Position numbers and translations under genes: made by a program. The notes under the pieces were generated by a model that worked only from the letters and a program-made list of their open reading frames with translations, had not been told where the DNA came from and did no database searches. Positions 1 through 25,227 of a stretch of 64,000 nt of DNA are shown one piece after another (positions within the stretch are counted from its first letter, which is position 1; every line of letters starts with the position of its first letter). Source of the stretch: Armatimonadota bacterium. Its GTDB lineage: Bacteria > Armatimonadota > Zipacnadia > UBA1398 > JAKPQA01. The DNA lies in the NCBI GenBank assembly GCA_029547025.1, contig JAKPQA010000319.1, forward strand, positions 1,263-65,262. The letters are read 5' to 3'.

Positions 1-428
1 TCGATGAAGAGCTGGCGGAAGACCCACTTTCCACCGGCCGCCTCGGGTAGTTCGGCGACGAAACGGCCACTGACATCGCGAATGCGGCCTCGGATCGGCC
101 GCCCGCCCGAGATGACCGGGTGCTCGCCGGGATAGGCGCCGTAGGTGATGGGGCACTCGGGCGTGCCGGAGTCCTCGGGCTCGAACACGATGGGCTCGGT
201 GATGCGGTAGACGCCCTCCCGAAGGACCACGTTCACGGGTTCGGTGAGGCCGCCGGCCCTGATTCGGCGCACCTCGGCCTTGGCGCGCTCGACGGTGGCG
301 AAGGGGTCGCGCAGGCCGCCGCGGGCGGTATCGTCGCCATCGGGCGCCACGTAGACCGTGGCGGGCCAGGCCGGCCTGCCGACGAGCAGGGCACAGGCCA
401 TTAGCAAGCACAGGGTCGCGGATCGCAC
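1..428 (-). CDS. Secreted right-handed beta-helix (pectate-lyase-like) protein; the 3' end lies beyond the window start
   Basis: The minus-strand frame is open from nt 1. Translation from the GTG near 428 reads (M)[87 protein letters not shown]... This has a signal peptide followed by the YVAPDGDD..G....PF.T...A N-terminal motif typical of beta-helix proteins. It is absent from the ORF track because there is no stop within the window. Confidence 0.5.
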
Positions 429-535
429 GAGGATCGCCTCCCGGCATGTCGTGGGAGTGGATTCCCGGCGGCGCGCGGAGAGGCCTGCAAGGGGGACGAG
501 GGAGGACGGTGGCGGTGGGAGCGCCGAAGAAGACC

Positions 536-1825
536 ATGCGTCCCGCTCGGGACGAACTGGAGGGGAGGGCTCGCGTGCCAGACGACCGACCACCCGCACC
601 GCGCATCGAGGAGCTCCGCGTGCGCAACTACCGAGCCCTGCGCGACCTGAGGCTGGGCAAGCTCAGCCCTCTCACCGTGTTGCTCGGGCCGAATGGCAGC
701 GGCAAGTCGACGGTGTTCGACGTGTTCGCGTTCCTCTCCGAGTGCCTCTCAGAGGATCTGCACGGGCCATGGGGCAGACGTGGCGGGTTGAGGGAACTAC
801 GGAGCCGCGAGGCCGAGGGCCCGGTCAGCGTCCAGTTGAGCTACCGAGAGCCAGGCATGAGCCTGATGACCTATCTGCTCGAGATCGATGAGGACGCGGG
901 CGCACCCGTTGTGCGACGGGAGGTGCTCCGCTGGACAAGAGACCCGGGGGCTGGCAGGCCGTATCACTTCCTAGATGTCAGCAAGGGCGCTGGTCATGTC
1001 GTCACCGGCACGGACCCCGGGCTGGCGGGAGCGCGGAGGCCAGTTGCCCTTACGTCGTCGAGCCGGCTGGCGATCAGCGCACTCGGGCAGCTACGAGAGC
1101 ACCCGCGAGTCGCGGCCCTGCGGGACTTCATCACCGGTTGGTATCTGTCCTATCTGTCGGCGAGCGACGCCCGTCACCCGCCGGAGACCGGCCCCCAGCC
1201 GAGGCTCAACAAGAAGGGCGACAACCTGGCGAACGTGATCCAGTACCTACGGGAGCGGTATCCCCGAGTGCTCGAGCGGATCCTGGCGACGCTGTGCCAG
1301 CGAGTCCCACGGCTGGAGTCCGTCGACGCGAAGACGATGGAGGATGGGCGGCTGCTCCTCACCATCAAGGATTCCCCCTTCACCCAGCCCATCCTCGCCC
1401 GGTTCGCCTCCGATGGCACGCTGAAGATGCTGGCCTACCTCACGGTGCTGCATGACCCCTCCCCCCGACCACTGGTGGGCATCGAGGAGCCTGAGAACCA
1501 CCTACATCCGCGCCTGCTTCCGGGGCTGGCCGCGGAGTGTGCTGCGGCGACCGAGCGGTCGCAGCTCTTAGTGACGACCCACAGCCCCTTCTTCATCAAC
1601 GAGCTCCGCCCCGAGGATGTTTGGGTGCTCGAACGCGACGCACAGGGGTACGCGCGAGCCCGAGTGACGTCCAAGATGCCCGGCATACGCGAGCACATCG
1701 ACGCCGGGGGCAAGTTGGGCCACCTCTGGACGGAGGGCTACTTCAACTTCGGCGACCCGCTGAGTCGGGCGGGCGGTTCGACGCCCTCGCCTCGCCGGTC
1801 GAGGGGTGCCGGGCGTGCAGTTTGA
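536..1825 (+). CDS. ABC-type AAA_21-family ATPase, likely the ATPase of an OLD/PARIS(AriA)/Gabija-like ATPase+TOPRIM module
   Basis: Walker [17 protein letters not shown] is preceded by the typical [15 protein letters not shown]-terminus. ABC signature-like SDGTLKML, Walker B/D-loop [13 protein letters not shown] and H-loop LLVTTHSP are all present. I chose the in-frame ATG at 536 over the ORF-track start at 446 because the conserved N-terminal motif begins about 16 residues after it. Confidence 0.75.
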
Positions 1826-2420
1826 GTTCCTCGTCGAGGGCGAGTCCGATGAGATCGCTGTGCGCGAGTTGGCGGCTCGGGCGCTCGGCCCTGACCATGC
1901 GGTCGAGGTGCGCCGTTTCCAGGGCAAGGAGGACTTGCTGGCCCGGTGGCCGGAGAGGGCGGCGGCCTATGCGCGGATCGCCGACCCGAACCGGCGCATC
2001 GTCGTCGTGCTGGATAACGACCGTGGTAACTGCATCGACCTGAGGCGACGGGTCGAGGCCGTGGCCCGCACGGCTGGGCTCAAGGTGGATGGTCCGTTGA
2101 CGGCGCGTCAGGTGGTCGTGCGCATCGCCATGCATGAGCTGGAGGCGTGGTTCCTGGGTGACGTGTCTGCACTGCGAGCGGCGTATCCGGGCGTTCCGGA
2201 GACTCTCGCCGCCCGTAGGGGCTTCCGCGACGTGGATTCGATTGAGCGACCACACGCCAGGCTCGAGCGGGTGCTCCAGAACGCTGGCTACCACGCCAGC
2301 CGACTGGACAAGATACGCGCGGCGCAGGACATCGCCCCGCACATGAACCCCCGCTCGAACCGATCGCGGAGTTTCTGCGTGTTCGTGCGGGGGCTAAGGG
2401 AGCTGGCCGGTGAGCCGTAG
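1806..2420 (+). CDS. TOPRIM-like (DUF4276-like) putative nuclease partner of the ATPase
   Basis: About 200 aa. [11 protein letters not shown] supplies the TOPRIM conserved Glu and [10 protein letters not shown] supplies the DxD motif. The start (GTG at 1806 or 1815) overlaps the ATPase stop at 1825, which implies translational coupling. The family name DUF4276 comes from memory and is not verified. Confidence 0.55.
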
Positions 2421-2796
2421 CCGCGCCTGTGGGAGGTCTGCCTGATGGCCTCGGCGCGCATCCGCCCGCGCATCGAGCGGCGTCGACTCCGGCCTCAGCG
2501 TATCACCGGCACGGTGCGGCAGCTCGACGGCTGGCCCCCGGGCCACTTCGCGGCTTGGGGCGACGGCGCACCGCCCCGCCGCACGCTCTCCGACAGCGCG
2601 CCCTCGCCCAAGCCCGCACCGTCCGCGCCCACCGGGCCGAGCGCATCCTAGGCGACGGCCAGCCGTTGGTCGTTGGCCGGCGTGGGCGATGGGGGTGAGC
2701 TGAGCGGAGCGCTGGGTCGGGGGCGTGGCTGCACGCGGGGGGCCCGAGCGCTCCATAGGCGCCCGATAGCCCTCACCCGATCCGCTCCGGCAGGCT

Positions 2797-20136: not shown

Positions 20137-20424
20137 GGCAAGCCAGAGCGACGCGCGGCAGCCATGCACAGGGTTCCACACGGCGGCGGTGGACAGCGGC
20201 CCGGTTCCGAGCCAGTTCGGTCAACAAGGCGTGACAGTTTCGGGACGCTTCACGAGGAGGTCAAGGGGGGGCGCCAACGAAGGTGTAGGGTTATCCGGCT
20301 TCCCATGGCGCCGTCGGCAATGCCCTGGGGTCGTGACCCGACCCGCACCCAGGGCCGTCGGGCCGCCGTAACGAAGGAGTCCCCCCGCAGTCGGCCGTGT
20401 GCGAGCCCTGAGGAGGTCCCCGGT

Positions 20425-21762
20425 GTGAAAGCGCGATCATTGTGGCCCATGGTCTGCCCCTGCGTGATCCTCCTGGCGGCGGCAGCCCGTCCCGAGGCGG
20501 ACGCCACCACCGATAACCCTGTGGTCGGCCCGCCCGCCGCCCCAACCGACACACCCACGGCACCCGATAAGGGGCCCCTCATCACCATCACCCCCGAAGG
20601 GGTGTCCGTCTATGCCGTCCGGTGTGACGCGCATGCCCTGCTGACCGACATCGCCCGGAAGACCGGGTTCTCGATCATCGTCGACGACTCGGTCCGTGGC
20701 GTCCTGACCGTGAACTTCAAAAACCGCAAGGTGTCCGACATCATCCGGGACATCGCCGCCACCTACGGCCTGGCCTGCCGCGAGGAGAACGGCGTGTTCA
20801 CCATCACCGAAGGACTGCCGGCCCACGTCTCGTCCTACCTGCTCTCGGAGATGGCTTCGGTGCGTCCCGACTACATACCGGCCAGCGATGCCGAGCAGCT
20901 CCTCCCCGTGTTCCTGCAGGACTATACGGCGCCAAGTCTCCATCAGAACGCCGTGGTGCTGTCCGCCCCGCCCGAGATCCTCGAGAAGTTCCGCGGCGAC
21001 GTGAAGCAGTTCGATGTGCCGGCCGCTCAGATCATGATCGAGGTCCTGATGGTCGAGTTTGGCGAGACGAACAGCGACGAGTTCTACGCCAAGCTCGGTT
21101 GGTCGCGGAACGGCCGGGGAGTCACCACCGACTCGGCTCGGGGGGCGGCCACGTTCCACGTGCTGGGCGATCTGCCGGTGGGCTTCACGGCGGAGCTCCG
21201 GGCCATGGAGGCCGCCGGCAGAGCCCACGTTCGCGCCAACCCGCGGATCGCCACCGTCAGCGGGCGCGAGGCCAGTGTCTTCATCGGTGAAAGGCGGTTC
21301 CTGGCCAAGCCCGTCGAGATGTCGGGCGGAGATGATGGCAACGATGACAACCGGCGGCAGATCAACTTCATCAACGCCGGAGTGAACCTCAGCATCACGC
21401 CGTGGACCGGCGGAGAGGGCGAGATCCAGGCTCAGATCCAGACCGAGGTCTCAACCATGAGCGCACCCGATGCCGTAACCGGGTTACCCCAGAAACAGAC
21501 TCGATCCGCCAGCACGGACATCCGGATGCTCGACGGCGAGACGGTGCTCATTGGCGGGCTGGTCCAGGATGAGATGATCGAGACCAAGTCCAAGATACCG
21601 GTCCTCGGCGACATCCCGCTGATCGGCAAACTCTTCCGTAGCAAGAACACACGGCGATTCCAGACCGAGCTGGTGGTGTTCGTAACCGCCAGGATCCTGC
21701 CGGGAAGCAACGGGAATGGCCAACCACACGCCGCCAAGGAGGCCCGCGCGACCGCACCATGA
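20425..21762 (+). CDS. Secretin-family outer-membrane channel protein, paralog 1
   Basis: The C-terminus GGLVQDEMIETKSKIPVLGDIPLIGKLFRSKNTRRFQTELVVFVTARIL is the canonical secretin motif (VP.LGDIPllG.LFr.....e.ElliFiTPrIv). An N0/secretin-N-like segment LLTDIARKTGFSIIVDDSVRGVLTVNFKNRKVSDIIRDIAATYGL is present. The GTG start with GAGGAGG 8 nt upstream gives the signal peptide VKARSLWPMVCPCVILLAAAA. Confidence 0.75.
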   Translation: MKARSLWPMVCPCVILLAAAARPEADATTDNPVVGPPAAPTDTPTAPDKGPLITITPEGVSVYAVRCDAHALLTDIARKTGFSIIVDDSVRGVLTVNFKNRKVSDIIRDIAATYGLACREENGVFTITEGLPAHVSSYLLSEMASVRPDYIPASDAEQLLPVFLQDYTAPSLHQNAVVLSAPPEILEKFRGDVKQFDVPAAQIMIEVLMVEFGETNSDEFYAKLGWSRNGRGVTTDSARGAATFHVLGDLPVGFTAELRAMEAAGRAHVRANPRIATVSGREASVFIGERRFLAKPVEMSGGDDGNDDNRRQINFINAGVNLSITPWTGGEGEIQAQIQTEVSTMSAPDAVTGLPQKQTRSASTDIRMLDGETVLIGGLVQDEMIETKSKIPVLGDIPLIGKLFRSKNTRRFQTELVVFVTARILPGSNGNGQPHAAKEARATAP

Positions 21763-23474
21763 CGCCCCATCACGCTGCCCCTCGATTCGGCATGGCCCCC
21801 CTGCTTGCCCTGGCGATGGCAGGCGCGGCCGTCCCTGCCCTGGCGCAGGTCGGCCGCGTGTACTGCAACGTGACCGAAGTAAAGGCCACGCAGCTCTCGA
21901 ACGCGGTTCGCATCGATCTCCGGTGCGACGGGCAGCTCGAGGTCGCCGCGGACCTCACGGACTACGTCGAGGTGGATCCGCGGCAGGGCGGCGTCACCGC
22001 CGCCAAGCCGGTCCGGAACATCGTGTTGCGGCTGACGAACGCCAAGTCCAGGGTGGGCGCGTTCATCGATGTCGGTCGCTACCCCGTGAGCCACGTCGAG
22101 ATGGCCCCCCTGCCCGACAGCCCCGATGGCGTCGGCGTGGCCTGCACGATCTCGCTCTACCCCCCGGGCCGCACCAACGGCCTCCGTATGGCTCCGTACT
22201 ACCTCGATCCCCACGACTTCATCGAGGCCGGCCTGGGCTTCAGGCCCGGCGAGGTCCGATGGCTTGTTCAGGAGGCCGACGACCGGCGCGGCCTCGTGTT
22301 CATCGTGACCTCGGATCGCTTCGCCATCGATGCCGACTCCTCCCCTGAGGAAGAGGTCCCCTATACGCTCGACATCGGCTATGCCGACGGGCTGGTGGAA
22401 GTGCGTGCCGTGCGCGCGCCGATCGGCGCATTGGCGGAAACCATCGGAGCGCGCACCGGGCTCCGTTGCACCGTGGCCGGCGACCCGGGCCGGCGCGTGT
22501 CACTCTACGTGCCGCCCACTCGGCCGGAGCGGGTGTTGAGTGAACTCGCCCGCTCCCAGGGGCTGACGCTGATGAAAGACCCCGCCGGTCCCATGCAGCT
22601 GCAGGCCCTCGCTCCCCGCGACCCGGCCACCTATGACGGTACGGAGACACGCTTGCTCCGGCTGAACCACCTGACGGCCGAGGAGGCACTCGGGCTCCTG
22701 CCGGTGTGCCTTCTGCGCTATGTGCGACCCAGCCCCGAGCAGAACGCCCTCGTCGCGTCGGGCTCCACCGAGCTGCTCGACCACCTGCAGGCGAATCTGC
22801 AGGCCGTCGACCTGCCCGCCCCGATCATCGAGGTCGTCGTCGAGGTCCTGGCCCACTTCAGCGATCGTGGCTCACTGGCCCACCTCGCCATCGACGGCCA
22901 GGCGGGCCGCTGGGTTGGTGGGGCGAGCGGGGAGGGCCTCGAGGCATTCTGTACGCCCGTCGGAGCTCTGCGACCCGAACTCGAAGCGCACATCCGCGAC
23001 CTGCGCCTCGCCGGCGAGCTCGACGTCGTGACCCGGCAGCGTCTCAGCATCACCAATGGTAGCAAGGGCCACGTGTTCGTCGGTGACCAGCCGACGATTG
23101 TGACCAGCTACTATGACTACTTCGAGAACGAGATGCGACCGGATCTGACGGTGGTCGACGTCGGCGCCCGGCTCGAGATCGAGCCGTGGACCGGCAACCG
23201 CGAGGACATCACCGTCCACCTCTCCCCCGCGGTCTCGAGCATCCGCGGCGAGGATCCGATCACCGGTATGCCCGTGCTGAGTGTGCGCAGGGCCGAGGCC
23301 ACCGTCCGCGTGCGGGCCGGCGAGCCAATCGTGCTGGGCGGGCTCAGCATGTTCTCCGACGAGAGCACACACCACCGGCTCAACCTGCCGGTCATTCAGT
23401 CCATATTCCGGGGTCGAGGCCGCACGGAGCAGAACGCCGAGTTCAGCTTCGTGGTCACCCCCAGGGTGCTGTAG
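21759..23474 (+). CDS. Secretin-family protein, paralog 2
   Basis: The C-terminus GEPIVLGGLSMFSDESTHHRLNLPVIQSIFRGRGRTEQNAEFSFVVTPRVL is secretin-like. The signal peptide is MAPLLALAMAGAAVPALAQVG. The ATG overlaps the paralog-1 stop (ATGA). Confidence 0.75.
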   Translation: MTPHHAAPRFGMAPLLALAMAGAAVPALAQVGRVYCNVTEVKATQLSNAVRIDLRCDGQLEVAADLTDYVEVDPRQGGVTAAKPVRNIVLRLTNAKSRVGAFIDVGRYPVSHVEMAPLPDSPDGVGVACTISLYPPGRTNGLRMAPYYLDPHDFIEAGLGFRPGEVRWLVQEADDRRGLVFIVTSDRFAIDADSSPEEEVPYTLDIGYADGLVEVRAVRAPIGALAETIGARTGLRCTVAGDPGRRVSLYVPPTRPERVLSELARSQGLTLMKDPAGPMQLQALAPRDPATYDGTETRLLRLNHLTAEEALGLLPVCLLRYVRPSPEQNALVASGSTELLDHLQANLQAVDLPAPIIEVVVEVLAHFSDRGSLAHLAIDGQAGRWVGGASGEGLEAFCTPVGALRPELEAHIRDLRLAGELDVVTRQRLSITNGSKGHVFVGDQPTIVTSYYDYFENEMRPDLTVVDVGARLEIEPWTGNREDITVHLSPAVSSIRGEDPITGMPVLSVRRAEATVRVRAGEPIVLGGLSMFSDESTHHRLNLPVIQSIFRGRGRTEQNAEFSFVVTPRVL

Positions 23475-23484
23475 GGGCGGCGAG

Positions 23485-25227
23485 ATGAGACGTAGAGGAA
23501 CATGGCTGTCGTTGTGGCTGCTCGGCCTGATCTCTGCCCAGGCTCAAGCCATCGTCTACTGCAACATCACCGACGTCCGGTGTGACGTGCTCTCCAACGG
23601 TATCCAGGTCACCGTGGCATCGGATGGCATTCTGGAGTATCAGCATCCCACCGAGCAGTGGCAGCCGCGTTACTGGAGCGGCAAGAGCCTGACGCTCCTG
23701 TTCCCCGGCGCTCGCTCCAAGTTCGGACGCAACTTCATCGACGTGAGCAAGTTCCCCGTGAGCTTCATTCAGCTGTCCATTCCCACCACGGCCCAGGAGG
23801 GCGTTGGCATTCTCCTGACCGTATCGGCGATGGCCAACACGGACTTCCGCATCTCCCAGGCCGCCAACCGCCAAAGCGTCATCATCACGGTGGCCAGTAC
23901 GCGCACGCTCGAGAAGGGAGCCGGTGCGACAGCCACCTCGGGTGGCGAGGCCCAGCTCACCGTCGAGACCCGGAACGGCACCGCGTCCGTCCATGCCGTG
24001 AACGCCGACGTGCACGAGGTGTTCGCCCGTGTGGCGCAGGCGCTCAACCTCGACGTCGCCGTCGATGACGGCGTCGACCGTCGCATCAGCGTCTTCATGG
24101 CCGACGTTCCGGGTGAGGACCTGCTGCGAGCCATTGCCCGGGCCGCCGGGCTCGCCCTCGTCAAGACCCCCGATGGCACCTTCATGGTCAGCGCGGGTGT
24201 GGTCGAGGATCTGGCGACCTATCGTCTCACCGAGACGCGATCCTTCCGGATGCACAACATCCAGGCGTCCTCGGCCGCCCAGCTGCTGCCCACCTTCATC
24301 TTCCCCTACCTGCACCAGAACAAGCCCCAGAACGCCGTGGTCGTCACCGCCCAGGAGGATATGCTCGAGAAGATCGAGGCGGACCTGAGGGCCATCGACA
24401 AGGCGCCGCCCCAGATCATGATCGAGGTCCTGGCCGTGGAGTTCATCGACACCAGGGAGGCCGAGCGGTCCCTGGCGCTCCTCCACAACACGGCGGGCTC
24501 CGCCGACACCTACGACTCGACCCTCGGCGATATCAGCTACTCGACCATCGGCGTGCTGCCCGAGGAGTTCCTCGCCAATGTGAACTGGCTCAAGAGCAAG
24601 GGCAAGGCGGTCATCAAAGCGCAGCCGAAGATGGCTGTCCTCAACGGGGGTCAAGCGAGGATTTTCATCGGGTCGACCCGGTTCATCGAGGTCGAGGTGA
24701 GTCAGTGGGGCAGTGTGTCCCGTCGCATCCAGGGAGTCAACGTGGGCGTGACGCTCGACATCTCACCGTGGACCGGCGAGAGCCGGGAGATCACGACCAC
24801 CATCGCGCCCACCGTCTCGAACATCTCCGAGCTCGACTCGGAAACCGGCCTCCCCGTACTCAGCACGCGCGATGCCAAGACGCAGGTCCGGGCGCTCAGC
24901 GGCGAGACCATCATGATCGGAGGCCTCTCCCTCGAGCAGGCGCAAGTCACGAGCCACAAGACGAAGGTCCTTGGTGATCTGCCTCTCATCGGCAAACTCT
25001 TCCGCCGCAAAGCGACCCAGCGAACCGAGTCCCTGCTGGTCATCTTCGTCACACCCAGGCTGCTCGATGAGCGCGGCCGACTGCCGGAGGCCGAGCGCGA
25101 GTCGATCCACAAGCGGTTCCTGGAGTCCGACCACGGGTGGCAGGAACCCGCGACCATCGAGGTGAAGCGCTCGGGTGACCGCCTGAGCTGGAGGGAGACC
25201 GTCGCGACTCCGGCTTCGGGGTCGTGA
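23485..25227 (+). CDS. Secretin-family protein, paralog 3
   Basis: The C-terminus GETIMIGGLSLEQAQVTSHKTKVLGDLPLIGKLFRRKATQRTESLLVIFVTPRLL is secretin-like. The signal peptide is MRRRGTWLSLWLLGLISAQAQA. The ATG sits 10 nt after the paralog-2 stop. Confidence 0.8.
   Translation: MRRRGTWLSLWLLGLISAQAQAIVYCNITDVRCDVLSNGIQVTVASDGILEYQHPTEQWQPRYWSGKSLTLLFPGARSKFGRNFIDVSKFPVSFIQLSIPTTAQEGVGILLTVSAMANTDFRISQAANRQSVIITVASTRTLEKGAGATATSGGEAQLTVETRNGTASVHAVNADVHEVFARVAQALNLDVAVDDGVDRRISVFMADVPGEDLLRAIARAAGLALVKTPDGTFMVSAGVVEDLATYRLTETRSFRMHNIQASSAAQLLPTFIFPYLHQNKPQNAVVVTAQEDMLEKIEADLRAIDKAPPQIMIEVLAVEFIDTREAERSLALLHNTAGSADTYDSTLGDISYSTIGVLPEEFLANVNWLKSKGKAVIKAQPKMAVLNGGQARIFIGSTRFIEVEVSQWGSVSRRIQGVNVGVTLDISPWTGESREITTTIAPTVSNISELDSETGLPVLSTRDAKTQVRALSGETIMIGGLSLEQAQVTSHKTKVLGDLPLIGKLFRRKATQRTESLLVIFVTPRLLDERGRLPEAERESIHKRFLESDHGWQEPATIEVKRSGDRLSWRETVATPASGS

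Follow-up and report, generated by a model that had tools for sequence, protein, structure and literature searches.

A stand-alone copy of the HEC-01 candidate defence cassette, in which an ABC-type ATPase gene overlaps a DUF4276 gene, in an Armatimonadota contig

The gene pair and its surroundings

The window, which is the whole 64,000-nt stretch of Armatimonadota DNA analysed here, carries two plus-strand genes, gene A and gene B (Table 1), which belong to HEC-01 (Hma-embedded candidate 1, PADLOC-DB v2; Payne et al., bioRxiv 10.1101/2024.01.29.577857). A previous sequence-only reading had placed two open reading frames here, the second overlapping the stop of the first, and both were confirmed. 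The gene A stop codon TGA (1823-1825) lies within gene B; the overlap is one of translational coupling, and the two genes are called co-translated. Both genes have a third-position GC of 0.82, a value expected of real coding sequence, and a JGI metagenome contig (L001) encodes a protein of 429 aa that is 100% identical to that of gene A, together with one 99% identical to that of gene B. The pair consists of real, intact overlapping genes. The reading frame of gene A opens at ATG446, upstream of the start used in Table 1, and an alternative start may be GTG575, preceded at a distance of 5 nt by GGAGGGGAGGG, although the sequence ahead of GTG575 is conserved in the closest relative (L111). For gene B, GTG1815 (201 aa) appears a likelier start than GTG1806, because a GAGGGG (1799-1804) lies 10 nt upstream of it, because the resulting N-terminus M-Q-F-E-F-L-V-E fits the family consensus MHxEFLVE, and because gene B of the closest relative is annotated from the equivalent start with an 11-nt overlap.

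Table 1. Features of the cassette, in positions of the window
Feature	Position (nt)	Residues	Strand	Remarks
Upstream region travelling with the cassette	413..535		+	homology to the closest relative
Gene A	536..1825		+	ABC-type ATPase, HEC-01A; 429 aa from ATG536
Walker A / P-loop GPNGSGKST	686..712	51-59	+	invariant in 40 homologs
Q-loop candidate LGQ (Q185)	1082..1090		+	G184, Q185 invariant in 40 homologs
ABC signature-like SDGTLKML	1409..1432	292-299	+	S292, D293, G294, T295 invariant
Walker B and D-loop region	1481..1510	316-325	+	I316, E317, E318, P319, E320 invariant
H-loop TTHSP (H349)	1574..1588	347-351	+	T348, H349 invariant
A/B overlap	1806..1825		+	gene A 3' end / gene B 5' end; 20 nt, or 11 nt from GTG1815
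Gene B	1806..2420		+	DUF4276 protein, HEC-01B; 204 aa from GTG1806 to TAG2420
EGESDE, E11 right after strand b1	1836..1853	11-16	+	E11, S14 invariant in 39 homologs
FQGK after strand b2	1917..1928		+	G40 invariant, K41 at least 90%
DxD (D70, D72) at C-terminal end of b3	2001..2030	66-75	+	D70 invariant, D72 at least 90%
ELEAW just after strand b4	2136..2150		+	E111, E113, W115 invariant
NRSRSF, C-terminal helical part	2358..2375		+	N185, S187, S189, F190 invariant

As compared by blastn with the closest relative, the window is 77% identical in nucleotides over 413-2409, beginning at the first base of the contig of that relative; the homology stops about 11 nt ahead of the gene B stop, and a different gene lies downstream. 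The region 413-535 is probably either a promoter plus 5' leader or additional N-terminal coding sequence of gene A, and it is divergent from a minus-strand gene for a secreted GH141-like protein at the left edge of the window. A sigma-70 consensus promoter was not found upstream of gene A, terminal repeats, promoters and terminators around the cassette were none of them convincing, the Rfam scan of the window gave no match, and the 376-nt downstream spacer showed no unusual RNA structure (z = +0.78). A 68-aa ORF at 2445-2651 was considered as a third cassette gene and rejected, as it was not conserved in the closest relative; a compositional anomaly was likewise rejected, the GC of the cassette (0.66-0.70) being like that of its surroundings. 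The sequence-only reading had described the cassette as adjoining cell-surface genes and lying outside a defence island. Indeed, ten neighbours look cell-surface or secreted, and no PADLOC match was obtained in the 10 neighbour proteins out to 18.6 kb; helicase, reverse transcriptase, methyltransferase, RM and GajB-like genes are absent among the neighbours of the cassette. The cassette (approximately 413-2420) is a stand-alone HEC-01 copy.

The ATPase and the DUF4276 protein

The Walker A, Q-loop, signature, Walker B and H-loop elements of gene A follow one another in the canonical order of ABC ATPases, in which LGQ is the putative Q-loop by analogy with ABC ATPase architecture, and Payne et al. 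reported an ABC fold for HEC-01A (bioRxiv 10.1101/2024.01.29.577857). The protein matched Pfam AAA_21 at 1.4e-29 (104.6 bits against a cut-off of 27) and AAA_15 at 1.8e-16 (61.2 against 32.1), and the PADLOC model of HEC-01A, PDLC04182, at 6e-152 (504 bits), with residues 22-407 aligned to positions 2-404 of the 406 of the model. Further PADLOC matches were to AriA (5e-31), PDC-M07A, AbiLi, mad3 (6.6e-19) and PtuA (about 7e-17); among solved structures, an OLD nuclease and PtuA are nearest to gene A in sequence. Defence-system ATPases make up all of the best profile matches, which bears out the earlier view that this ATPase sides with defence proteins rather than with housekeeping ABC or SMC proteins; the matches to RecF, SMC and Rad50 are weak, cover the P-loop only and are far below the family cut-offs. 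Judged from these profiles, gene A stands apart from housekeeping SMC proteins and from ABC transporters. The mean column identity in the alignment of 40 homologs was 70%. The ATPase keeps about 60% identity between phyla and between domains, which is unusually high conservation for an immune sensor.

The protein encoded by gene B had been described as DUF4276-like, and it matched Pfam DUF4276 at 5.3e-25, above the Pfam cut-off (residues 10-197, model 1-191 of 192). The PADLOC model of HEC-01B, PDLC04202, matched at 4.5e-62 (208 bits; residues 5-200, model 2-200 of 204). The PADLOC check, which the sequence-only reading, uncertain whether the pairing had a name, had proposed, therefore places both proteins end to end in HEC-01, and the pairing is already a named candidate system; the cassette is an ordinary further member of the catalogued HEC-01 and no new kind of system. 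All of the motifs quoted in that reading for the two proteins were located at residue level, and they are not due to chance: in the alignments of 40 gene A and 39 gene B homologs, the key residues of the gene A motifs are invariant, as are E11, D70, E111 and E113 of gene B, and D72 is kept in at least 90%. C76, near the DxD of gene B, is also invariant in the 39 homologs.

The AlphaFold2 model of gene B (pLDDT 94.3) begins with a b-a-b-a-b-a-b core and is helical in its C-terminal half, with b1 at 5-10, b3 at 63-69/70 and b4 at 103-108 in the models, and the invariant acidic residues come directly after b1, b3 and b4 of this confident model. The layout is that of TOPRIM, with a Glu after b1 and the DxD after b3 (AlphaFold2 models, pLDDT 94.3 and 86.6), and HEC-01B and DUF4276 have been described in the literature as TOPRIM-like with a conserved metal site. 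The label of TOPRIM, which the sequence-only reading had given to gene B, stands on this motif placement and on the published structure comparisons, but it was not confirmed by our own fold and profile searches. Foldseek searches of the PDB with the full model and with the core model (residues 1-128) gave a best E of about 1e-2, with generic three-layer a/b folds and no TOPRIM structures, the full model had no significant match in the viral structure library, and the DUF4276 alignment, used as a profile against PDB sequences, found nothing. Pfam OLD-like_TOPRIM was matched by gene B below threshold (E 0.073, 14 bits against 23.2), a match seen in 2 of the 39 homologs. With hhalign, the comparison of gene B with the TOPRIM of P2 Old was non-significant (probability 0.4-6.5%, best pairwise E 0.0056, shallow profiles); it landed on the right region (b1-a1-b2; Old TOPRIM 395-436) but mis-registered the DxD, and its pairings of FLVEGESDE with LLVEGKTE and of FQGK with VDGKG of P2 Old were likewise non-significant. 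The P2 Old TOPRIM profile was shallow, the homolog search with the Old TOPRIM fragment having given 4 proteins, and the scans of viral contigs for such a profile gave only close Old relatives; an OLD-type TOPRIM was not found in the fetched loci. Gene B is presumed to encode a Toprim-like, metal-dependent nuclease effector.

Partnership, context and spread of the relatives

A peptide pattern from the ELEAW region retrieved 564 genomic relatives. An A homolog lies directly upstream and on the same strand in 80 of the 80 genome loci found through gene B alone, the tblastn matches being separated by -7 to +111 nt (-16 nt in the JGI contig), and the same was found in 4 plasmids and 1 phage-labelled contig of remote subfamilies, with identities of 34-60% for A and 26-36% for B. 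Gene A and gene B were always together in the loci examined. When all ORFs of the 80 loci were clustered, no conserved third gene was found, the other wide clusters being antisense shadow ORFs and one-lineage synteny. At E <=1e-3 the DUF4276 profile matched 2,245 cluster representatives, and relatives of the ATPase number more than 8,000. Bacterial and archaeal relatives resemble the query to almost the same degree (A 50-61%, B 38-49%), a pattern consistent with horizontal transfer. DUF4276 is scarce in plasmid records (10 of 72,556) and in phage records (1 of 50,697).

The order A-B-hsdR on one strand was found in 11 of the 80 loci, with hsdM and/or hsdS upstream in 8 of these 11, and the hosts are as distant as Elusimicrobia, Poribacteria, WOR-3, a cyanobacterium, a Smithellaceae bacterium and an archaeon. 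A Meiothermus plasmid carries, in a row, DUF262, HsdS, DUF4433, a macro-domain protein, the AAA ATPase, DUF4276 and HsdR. Such arrangements would suit a pair that serves as a back-up guard of RM, monitoring the type I system or sensing anti-restriction proteins, the nuclease firing when restriction is blocked. This would be in line with PARIS, which is triggered by the anti-restriction protein Ocr, and with PrrC, which is nearly always found inside a type I RM system. On the other hand, no RM genes adjoin the pair in 69 of the 80 loci or in the window, so dependence on RM cannot be general. We consider such a guard unlikely, and it is a specialised version of our main explanation, that of an ATPase-controlled abortive-infection nuclease, rather than a separate alternative.

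The other loci, like that of the window, have unrelated housekeeping flanks, e.g., the pair lies between carA and carB or beside lnt and prfA. In Synechocystis pSYSM it is found amid toxin-antitoxin, HNH, DUF86 and phosphorothioation-associated genes, and in one conjugative plasmid it is located between T4SS genes and a relaxase gene. The two genes move together among unrelated genomic sites. A compact unit of two overlapping genes with sharp boundaries at many unrelated sites, including plasmids of which one is conjugative, could also be a selfish, toxin-antitoxin-like addiction module, in which DUF4276 would be the toxin and the ATPase would neutralise it, without a role of its own against phages, and which would persist and spread as its loss is harmful. 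Pfam calls AAA_21 a 'putative AbiEii toxin, Type IV TA system' domain, and the first published test of HEC-01 showed no protection against phage. However, the toxicity of gene B is hypothetical, another HEC-01 has been reported as protective, and a defence role better suits a pair that is found time and again inside RM operons and in the same orientation. The probability of an addiction module is, in our judgement, small; since many toxin-antitoxin systems are themselves antiphage, this reading and that of defence overlap.

The flanks of most copies and the very high conservation of the ATPase would also be compatible with housekeeping nucleic-acid maintenance, where a RecF/SbcC/OLD-like ATPase and its nuclease would act in DNA repair or RNA processing, and to which the P-loop matches to repair ATPases might be added. 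But even the closest relative has different flanks, the flat similarity fits transfer, the repair-ATPase matches fall far short of their cut-offs whereas the best matches are to defence ATPases, and relatives of DUF4276 occur in 10 plasmid records, with the upstream ATPase confirmed in all 4 plasmids examined. A housekeeping role is thus very improbable.

Likeness to known systems and proposed mode of action

The window pair shares with HEC-01 the ABC ATPase gene followed by an adjacent gene, on the same strand, for a small TOPRIM-like (DUF4276) protein; it differs in standing alone, without embedding in Hma or RM. Its proteins are about 60% (A) and 48% (B) identical to typical HEC-01 members, and 78% and 72% identical to the nearest. 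The single HEC-01 tested by its discoverers gave E. coli MG1655 no protection against the panel phages (bioRxiv 10.1101/2024.01.29.577857). For another HEC-01, protection of E. coli B from one or more of the phages T4, T5 and T7 is reported, in a text that gives no effect size for HEC-01. The defence function of HEC-01 is therefore disputed, with one negative and one positive published test.

Mad3 and Mad4 of MADS are likewise an AAA_15/21 ABC ATPase and a DUF4276-type protein. The window proteins match them weakly (mad3 6.6e-19; mad4 1.4e-3, marginal), gene A reaches 114 bits on NCBIfam MAD3 against a cut-off of 420, and there is no methyltransferase or other MADS gene nearby; the pair is a distant paralogue of Mad3/Mad4 and not a member of MADS. 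The likeness to PARIS and OLD, which the sequence-only reading had drawn, holds for the kind of ATPase. PARIS also has a split ATPase and small nuclease, and gene A matches AriA models at 5.4e-31 and 2.4e-19, whereas gene B had no AriB or DUF4435 match (PADLOC and Pfam, E up to 1); PARIS is often borne by phages or satellites, while DUF4276 is nearly missing from phage records. The OLD family (P2 Old of class 1, Gabija GajA of class 2) has the same kind of ATPase and a TOPRIM-type E...DxD effector as proposed for gene B, and the closest solved relative of gene A by sequence is the OLD-family endonuclease 6p74 (3.2e-9, P-loop region). However, OLD proteins fuse ATPase and TOPRIM in one chain where the window has two genes, and the GajB-like helicase and the reverse transcriptase of classes 2 and 3 are not found near the pair. 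PrrC and RloA/RloB share the embedding in type I RM seen in the 11 loci, and RloB, like DUF4276, has been described as a newly recognised Toprim member, but gene B had no Pfam RloB match (E up to 1) and the window copy has no RM genes. Variants of Menshen NsnB/NsnC employ DUF4276 as predicted nuclease effector under an ABC ATPase, and gene A matches NsnB at 2.2e-16; Menshen has three components, with NsnA and a multidomain NsnC, whereas the DUF4276 protein of the window is free-standing, about 200 aa long and accompanied by no conserved third gene.

We favour, with moderate confidence, the explanation that the cassette is a stand-alone HEC-01 whose ATPase-controlled nuclease acts in abortive infection, as in PARIS and OLD. 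The ATPase would be both sensor and switch, keeping the DUF4276 protein inactive in a complex, and a cue associated with infection would lead, through ATP binding or hydrolysis, to the release or activation of that protein. The DUF4276 protein would then cut nucleic acid through a metal site, which would lie at the C-terminal edge of its parallel sheet and be held by the carboxylates of E11, D70/D72 and E111/E113. Both AriB and P2 Old are TOPRIM tRNases under the control of an ATPase, and by analogy the substrate is plausibly tRNA or other RNA, with DNA as a further possibility. Cleavage would stop growth and abort the infection. The logic of sequestration and subsequent release is borrowed from PARIS. 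Counting against an abortive-infection nuclease are the negative test of the discoverers, the lack of a TOPRIM match in our fold searches, the weak profile comparison with the TOPRIM of P2 Old and the absence of defence neighbours at this locus, and also the scarcity of DUF4276 on plasmids and phages and the high conservation of the ATPase.

For the locus in the window, our results mainly settle the annotation, which is that of a HEC-01 candidate defence cassette. The family is very widespread in bacteria and archaea while its published phenotypes conflict, and two observations bear on how it works, i.e., the repeated placement just upstream of hsdR in type I RM operons and a conservation of the ATPase far above that of usual immune sensors. 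Biochemical proof would add a branch to the theme of ATPase-controlled nucleases known from OLD, Gabija and PARIS. It is also conceivable, though we hold it only tentatively, that DUF4276 is a distinct Toprim-like branch that cuts tRNA or other RNA, and that the ATPase senses a conserved change in the state of the host and not a variable phage protein. If this were true, HEC-01 would be a broadly portable 'state-sensing' abortive-infection module, which would explain the disagreement of the tests in heterologous hosts; the host states sensed might be blocked restriction, free DNA ends or a replication intermediate.

Coding sequences and assignment to HEC-01

Genes A and B, which encode an ABC-type ATPase and a DUF4276 protein, lie head to tail on the plus strand, and the TGA of gene A falls within gene B, as the sequence-only reading had described; every motif quoted there for a two-gene cassette was located at its expected position in the two genes. 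Third-codon-position GC is 0.82 for both genes, and a 3.3-kb contig from a JGI metagenome has called A and B proteins that are 100% and 99% identical, respectively, to those of the window. The start of gene B is probably GTG1815, giving a predicted 201 aa, because GAGGGG lies 10 nt upstream and the N-terminus M-Q-F-E-F-L-V-E fits both the family consensus and the call in the closest relative, where the A/B overlap is 11 nt, the same as with the GTG1815 start. Gene A might alternatively start at GTG575, behind a strong Shine-Dalgarno sequence; the residues ahead of this codon are kept in the nearest relative, which counts against it.

Coordinates of the features in the window and at related loci
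Feature	Location	Strand	Details
Gene A	window 536-1825	+	ORF opens at 446; ATG536 start, 429 aa; TGA stop 1823-1825 (ORF call)
Gene B	window 1806-2420	+	GTG1806 to TAG2420, 204 aa (ORF call)
Arg/Pro-rich ORF	window 2445-2651	+	68 aa; ATG; GGGAGG 8 nt upstream; third-position GC 0.84
Spacer between convergent gene B and minus-strand lipoprotein gene	window 2421-2796		376 nt, 74% GC
Divergent gene	window 1-400; near-identical JGI contig (L001) 3-992	-	putative signal-peptide protein by eye; runs off left window edge
Three tandem secretin-domain genes (PF00263)	window 20164-25227	+	532, 571, 648 aa
DUF4433 and macro-domain genes directly upstream of the ATPase-DUF4276 pair, Meiothermus taiwanensis plasmid pMtWR-220	L092 3028-4721		
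Extra ORF between hsdS region and ATPase gene (three genome loci)	L017 6709-8211; L068 6738-8219; L004 7545-8723		

Gene A matched AAA_21 (1.4e-29) and AAA_15 (1.8e-16) of Pfam well over the cut-offs, and its best PADLOC model was HEC-01A (6e-152, spanning the full protein and the full model), followed more weakly by AriA (5e-31), PDC-M07A, AbiLi, mad3 and then PtuA. Among solved structures, an OLD-family endonuclease and PtuA come nearest in sequence. In profile searches the similarity to SMC, RecF and ABC transporters was limited to the P-loop, and the best matches of gene A are to defence ATPases, as had been proposed; a housekeeping repair function for the pair is less well supported. The relatives of gene A number more than 8,000, with about 60% identity over the whole length among the matches listed, and in the homolog alignment the columns average 70% identity and every nucleotide-binding motif is invariant.

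Gene B matched DUF4276 across its whole length (5.3e-25), the family suggested for it earlier, and HEC-01B of PADLOC (4.5e-62, full protein and full model), so the pairing already carries the name HEC-01. Judged from these sequence matches, the window pair is this catalogued candidate system. The sole non-HEC PADLOC match of gene B was mad4 (1.4e-3), and NCBIfam MAD3 scored 114 bits on gene A, far under its cut-off of 420; the relation to Mad3/Mad4 of MADS is distant. The interest lies in the HEC-01 family, for which the published antiphage activity is itself conflicting. Payne et al. [quoted passage not shown] The tree of the PARIS Nature paper takes in DUF4276-associated AAA15/21 ATPases, and MADS3-4 is counted there among the ATPase-plus-TOPRIM systems.

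The DUF4276 protein as a proposed Toprim-type nuclease

All 594 close homologs of gene B are DUF4276 proteins, typically of 40-50% identity and from many phyla; at E <= 1e-3 a DUF4276 profile recovered 2,245 cluster representatives, almost all of the best-scoring being about 200 aa long and free-standing. The residues E7, E11, S14, G40, D70, C76, R106, E111, E113, W115, G118, D119, D144, N185, S187, S189 and F190 are invariant in the homolog alignment, and D72 and K41 reach 90% conservation or more. The ATPase site of gene A is intact, and the acidic site of gene B is invariant.

In the AlphaFold2 model of gene B, which is of high confidence (pLDDT 94.3, pTM 0.89), a helical C-terminal half comes after a b-a-b-a-b-a-b core, with E11 directly after b1, D70-x-D72 at the end of b3 and E111/E113 after b4. 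This is how a metal site of the Toprim type is expected to be arranged, following the definition of Aravind et al. 1998 as cited in later literature. The E and DxD motifs on which the TOPRIM assignment was based earlier are in place and the topology agrees, but a significant fold or profile match to TOPRIM domains was not obtained. Foldseek against the PDB, with the full and the core-only model, yielded no match under E 1e-3, the best being generic three-layer a/b folds, and the hits to an RloB-like protein and to primase TOPRIM domains in a viral structure library had E values of 0.1-0.4 only. The hhalign comparison with P2 Old reached the correct TOPRIM region, pairing FLVEGESDE...FQGK with LLVEGKTE...VDGKG, but at low score (probability only 0.4-6.5%, best pairwise E 0.0056). 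The other Pfam matches were all sub-threshold, namely DUF3226 (6e-4) and OLD-like_TOPRIM (0.073, residues 9-30), the latter found, still below threshold, in just 2 of 39 homologs. No solved relative was found by sequence and no PHROG family was matched. The likeness to known TOPRIM domains rests on two published structure comparisons; Payne et al. reported a metal-binding site common to HEC-01B and the Burkholderia OLD TOPRIM domain, and the Menshen paper (NAR 2025) named DUF4276 and RloB as new Toprim members and connected DUF4276 to Mad4 of MADS.

The ATPase would sense an infection cue and control the DUF4276 nuclease, which would then cut nucleic acid and abort the infection. By analogy with the best-studied relatives, a plausible target is tRNA: AriB of PARIS is a TOPRIM tRNase under ATPase control, and so is P2 Old.

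Conservation and genomic context of the pair

Genes A and B form an obligate, co-translated pair. One genome per species was scanned with a gene B peptide pattern, which gave 564 relatives, and 80 loci were kept, which cover over 15 bacterial phyla as well as several archaeal lineages; a gene A homolog lay directly upstream of gene B on the same strand in all 80, the two tblastn matches being -7 to +111 nt apart, and no third gene proved to be conserved when the ORFs of these loci were clustered. Identity to the window proteins was consistently higher for A (50-61%) than for B (38-49%). Such better conservation of the ATPase would be unusual for a fast-evolving phage sensor. DUF4276 relatives are rare on plasmids (10/72,556 records) and nearly absent from phages (1/50,697), and the pairing recurred in remote subfamilies on four plasmids and one phage-labelled contig (A 34-60%, B 26-36% identity), the Meiothermus plasmid showing 60% and 36%.

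The unit is mobile and recurrently embedded in restriction-modification (RM) operons. The order A-B-hsdR on one strand was found in 11 of the 80 loci, eight of them with hsdM and/or hsdS upstream, from Elusimicrobia, Poribacteria, WOR-3, a cyanobacterium, a Smithellaceae bacterium and a methanogen-related archaeon. The Meiothermus plasmid carries consecutive genes for DUF262, HsdS, DUF4433, a macro-domain protein, an AAA ATPase, DUF4276 and HsdR. This embedding suggests that some copies may guard restriction, like PrrC and PARIS; the window copy has no RM partner. In Synechocystis pSYSM the pair lies amid toxin-antitoxin, HNH, DUF86 and phosphorothioation-associated genes. A rival reading of the pair as a selfish toxin-antitoxin-like module is less well supported than the antiphage reading. 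At other loci the pair is flanked by heterogeneous housekeeping genes, and a stand-alone copy like that of the window is therefore typical.

Several copies embedded in type I RM operons have an extra ORF of about 390-500 aa ahead of the ATPase gene, which may be an additional embedded gene. On pMtWR-220 the DUF4433 gene, the macro-domain gene and the pair all lie within one type I RM operon as a stack of embedded modules, the first two presumably resembling the DarT/DarG pair. In two genomes (A2/A3 members) the carbamoyl-phosphate synthase small-chain and large-chain genes immediately flank the pair, and the cassette can therefore occupy a core metabolic operon.

Surroundings in the window

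A secreted GH141-like gene, whose match to the GH141 insertion domain is near-threshold (26.2 bits, cut-off 27), lies at the left edge in divergent orientation to the pair. On the other side the pair faces a block of minus-strand genes (lipoprotein, PKD and CarboxypepD_reg) in convergent orientation. No PADLOC model matched any of ten neighbours up to 18.6 kb away, which bears out the earlier view that the cassette is not embedded in an obvious defence island. Nucleotide homology to the closest relative (77% identity) covers window 413-2409, from the first base of that contig, and stops about 11 nt ahead of the gene B stop, and the next gene in that relative encodes an unrelated regulator of the ArsR type, so that the pair behaves as a unit that is discrete and transferable. 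The 68-aa ORF beginning 25 nt past the gene B stop is probably neither a gene nor part of the cassette, since the near-identical JGI contig has no call for it and the closest relative does not conserve it. No consensus terminator was found in the spacer after gene B, and its RNA structure is not unusual (z = +0.78). The rest of the window is chromosomal in look, with carB, three secretin genes, glycoside hydrolases and a PAS histidine kinase; the secretin triplication is unusual for an outer-membrane channel gene.
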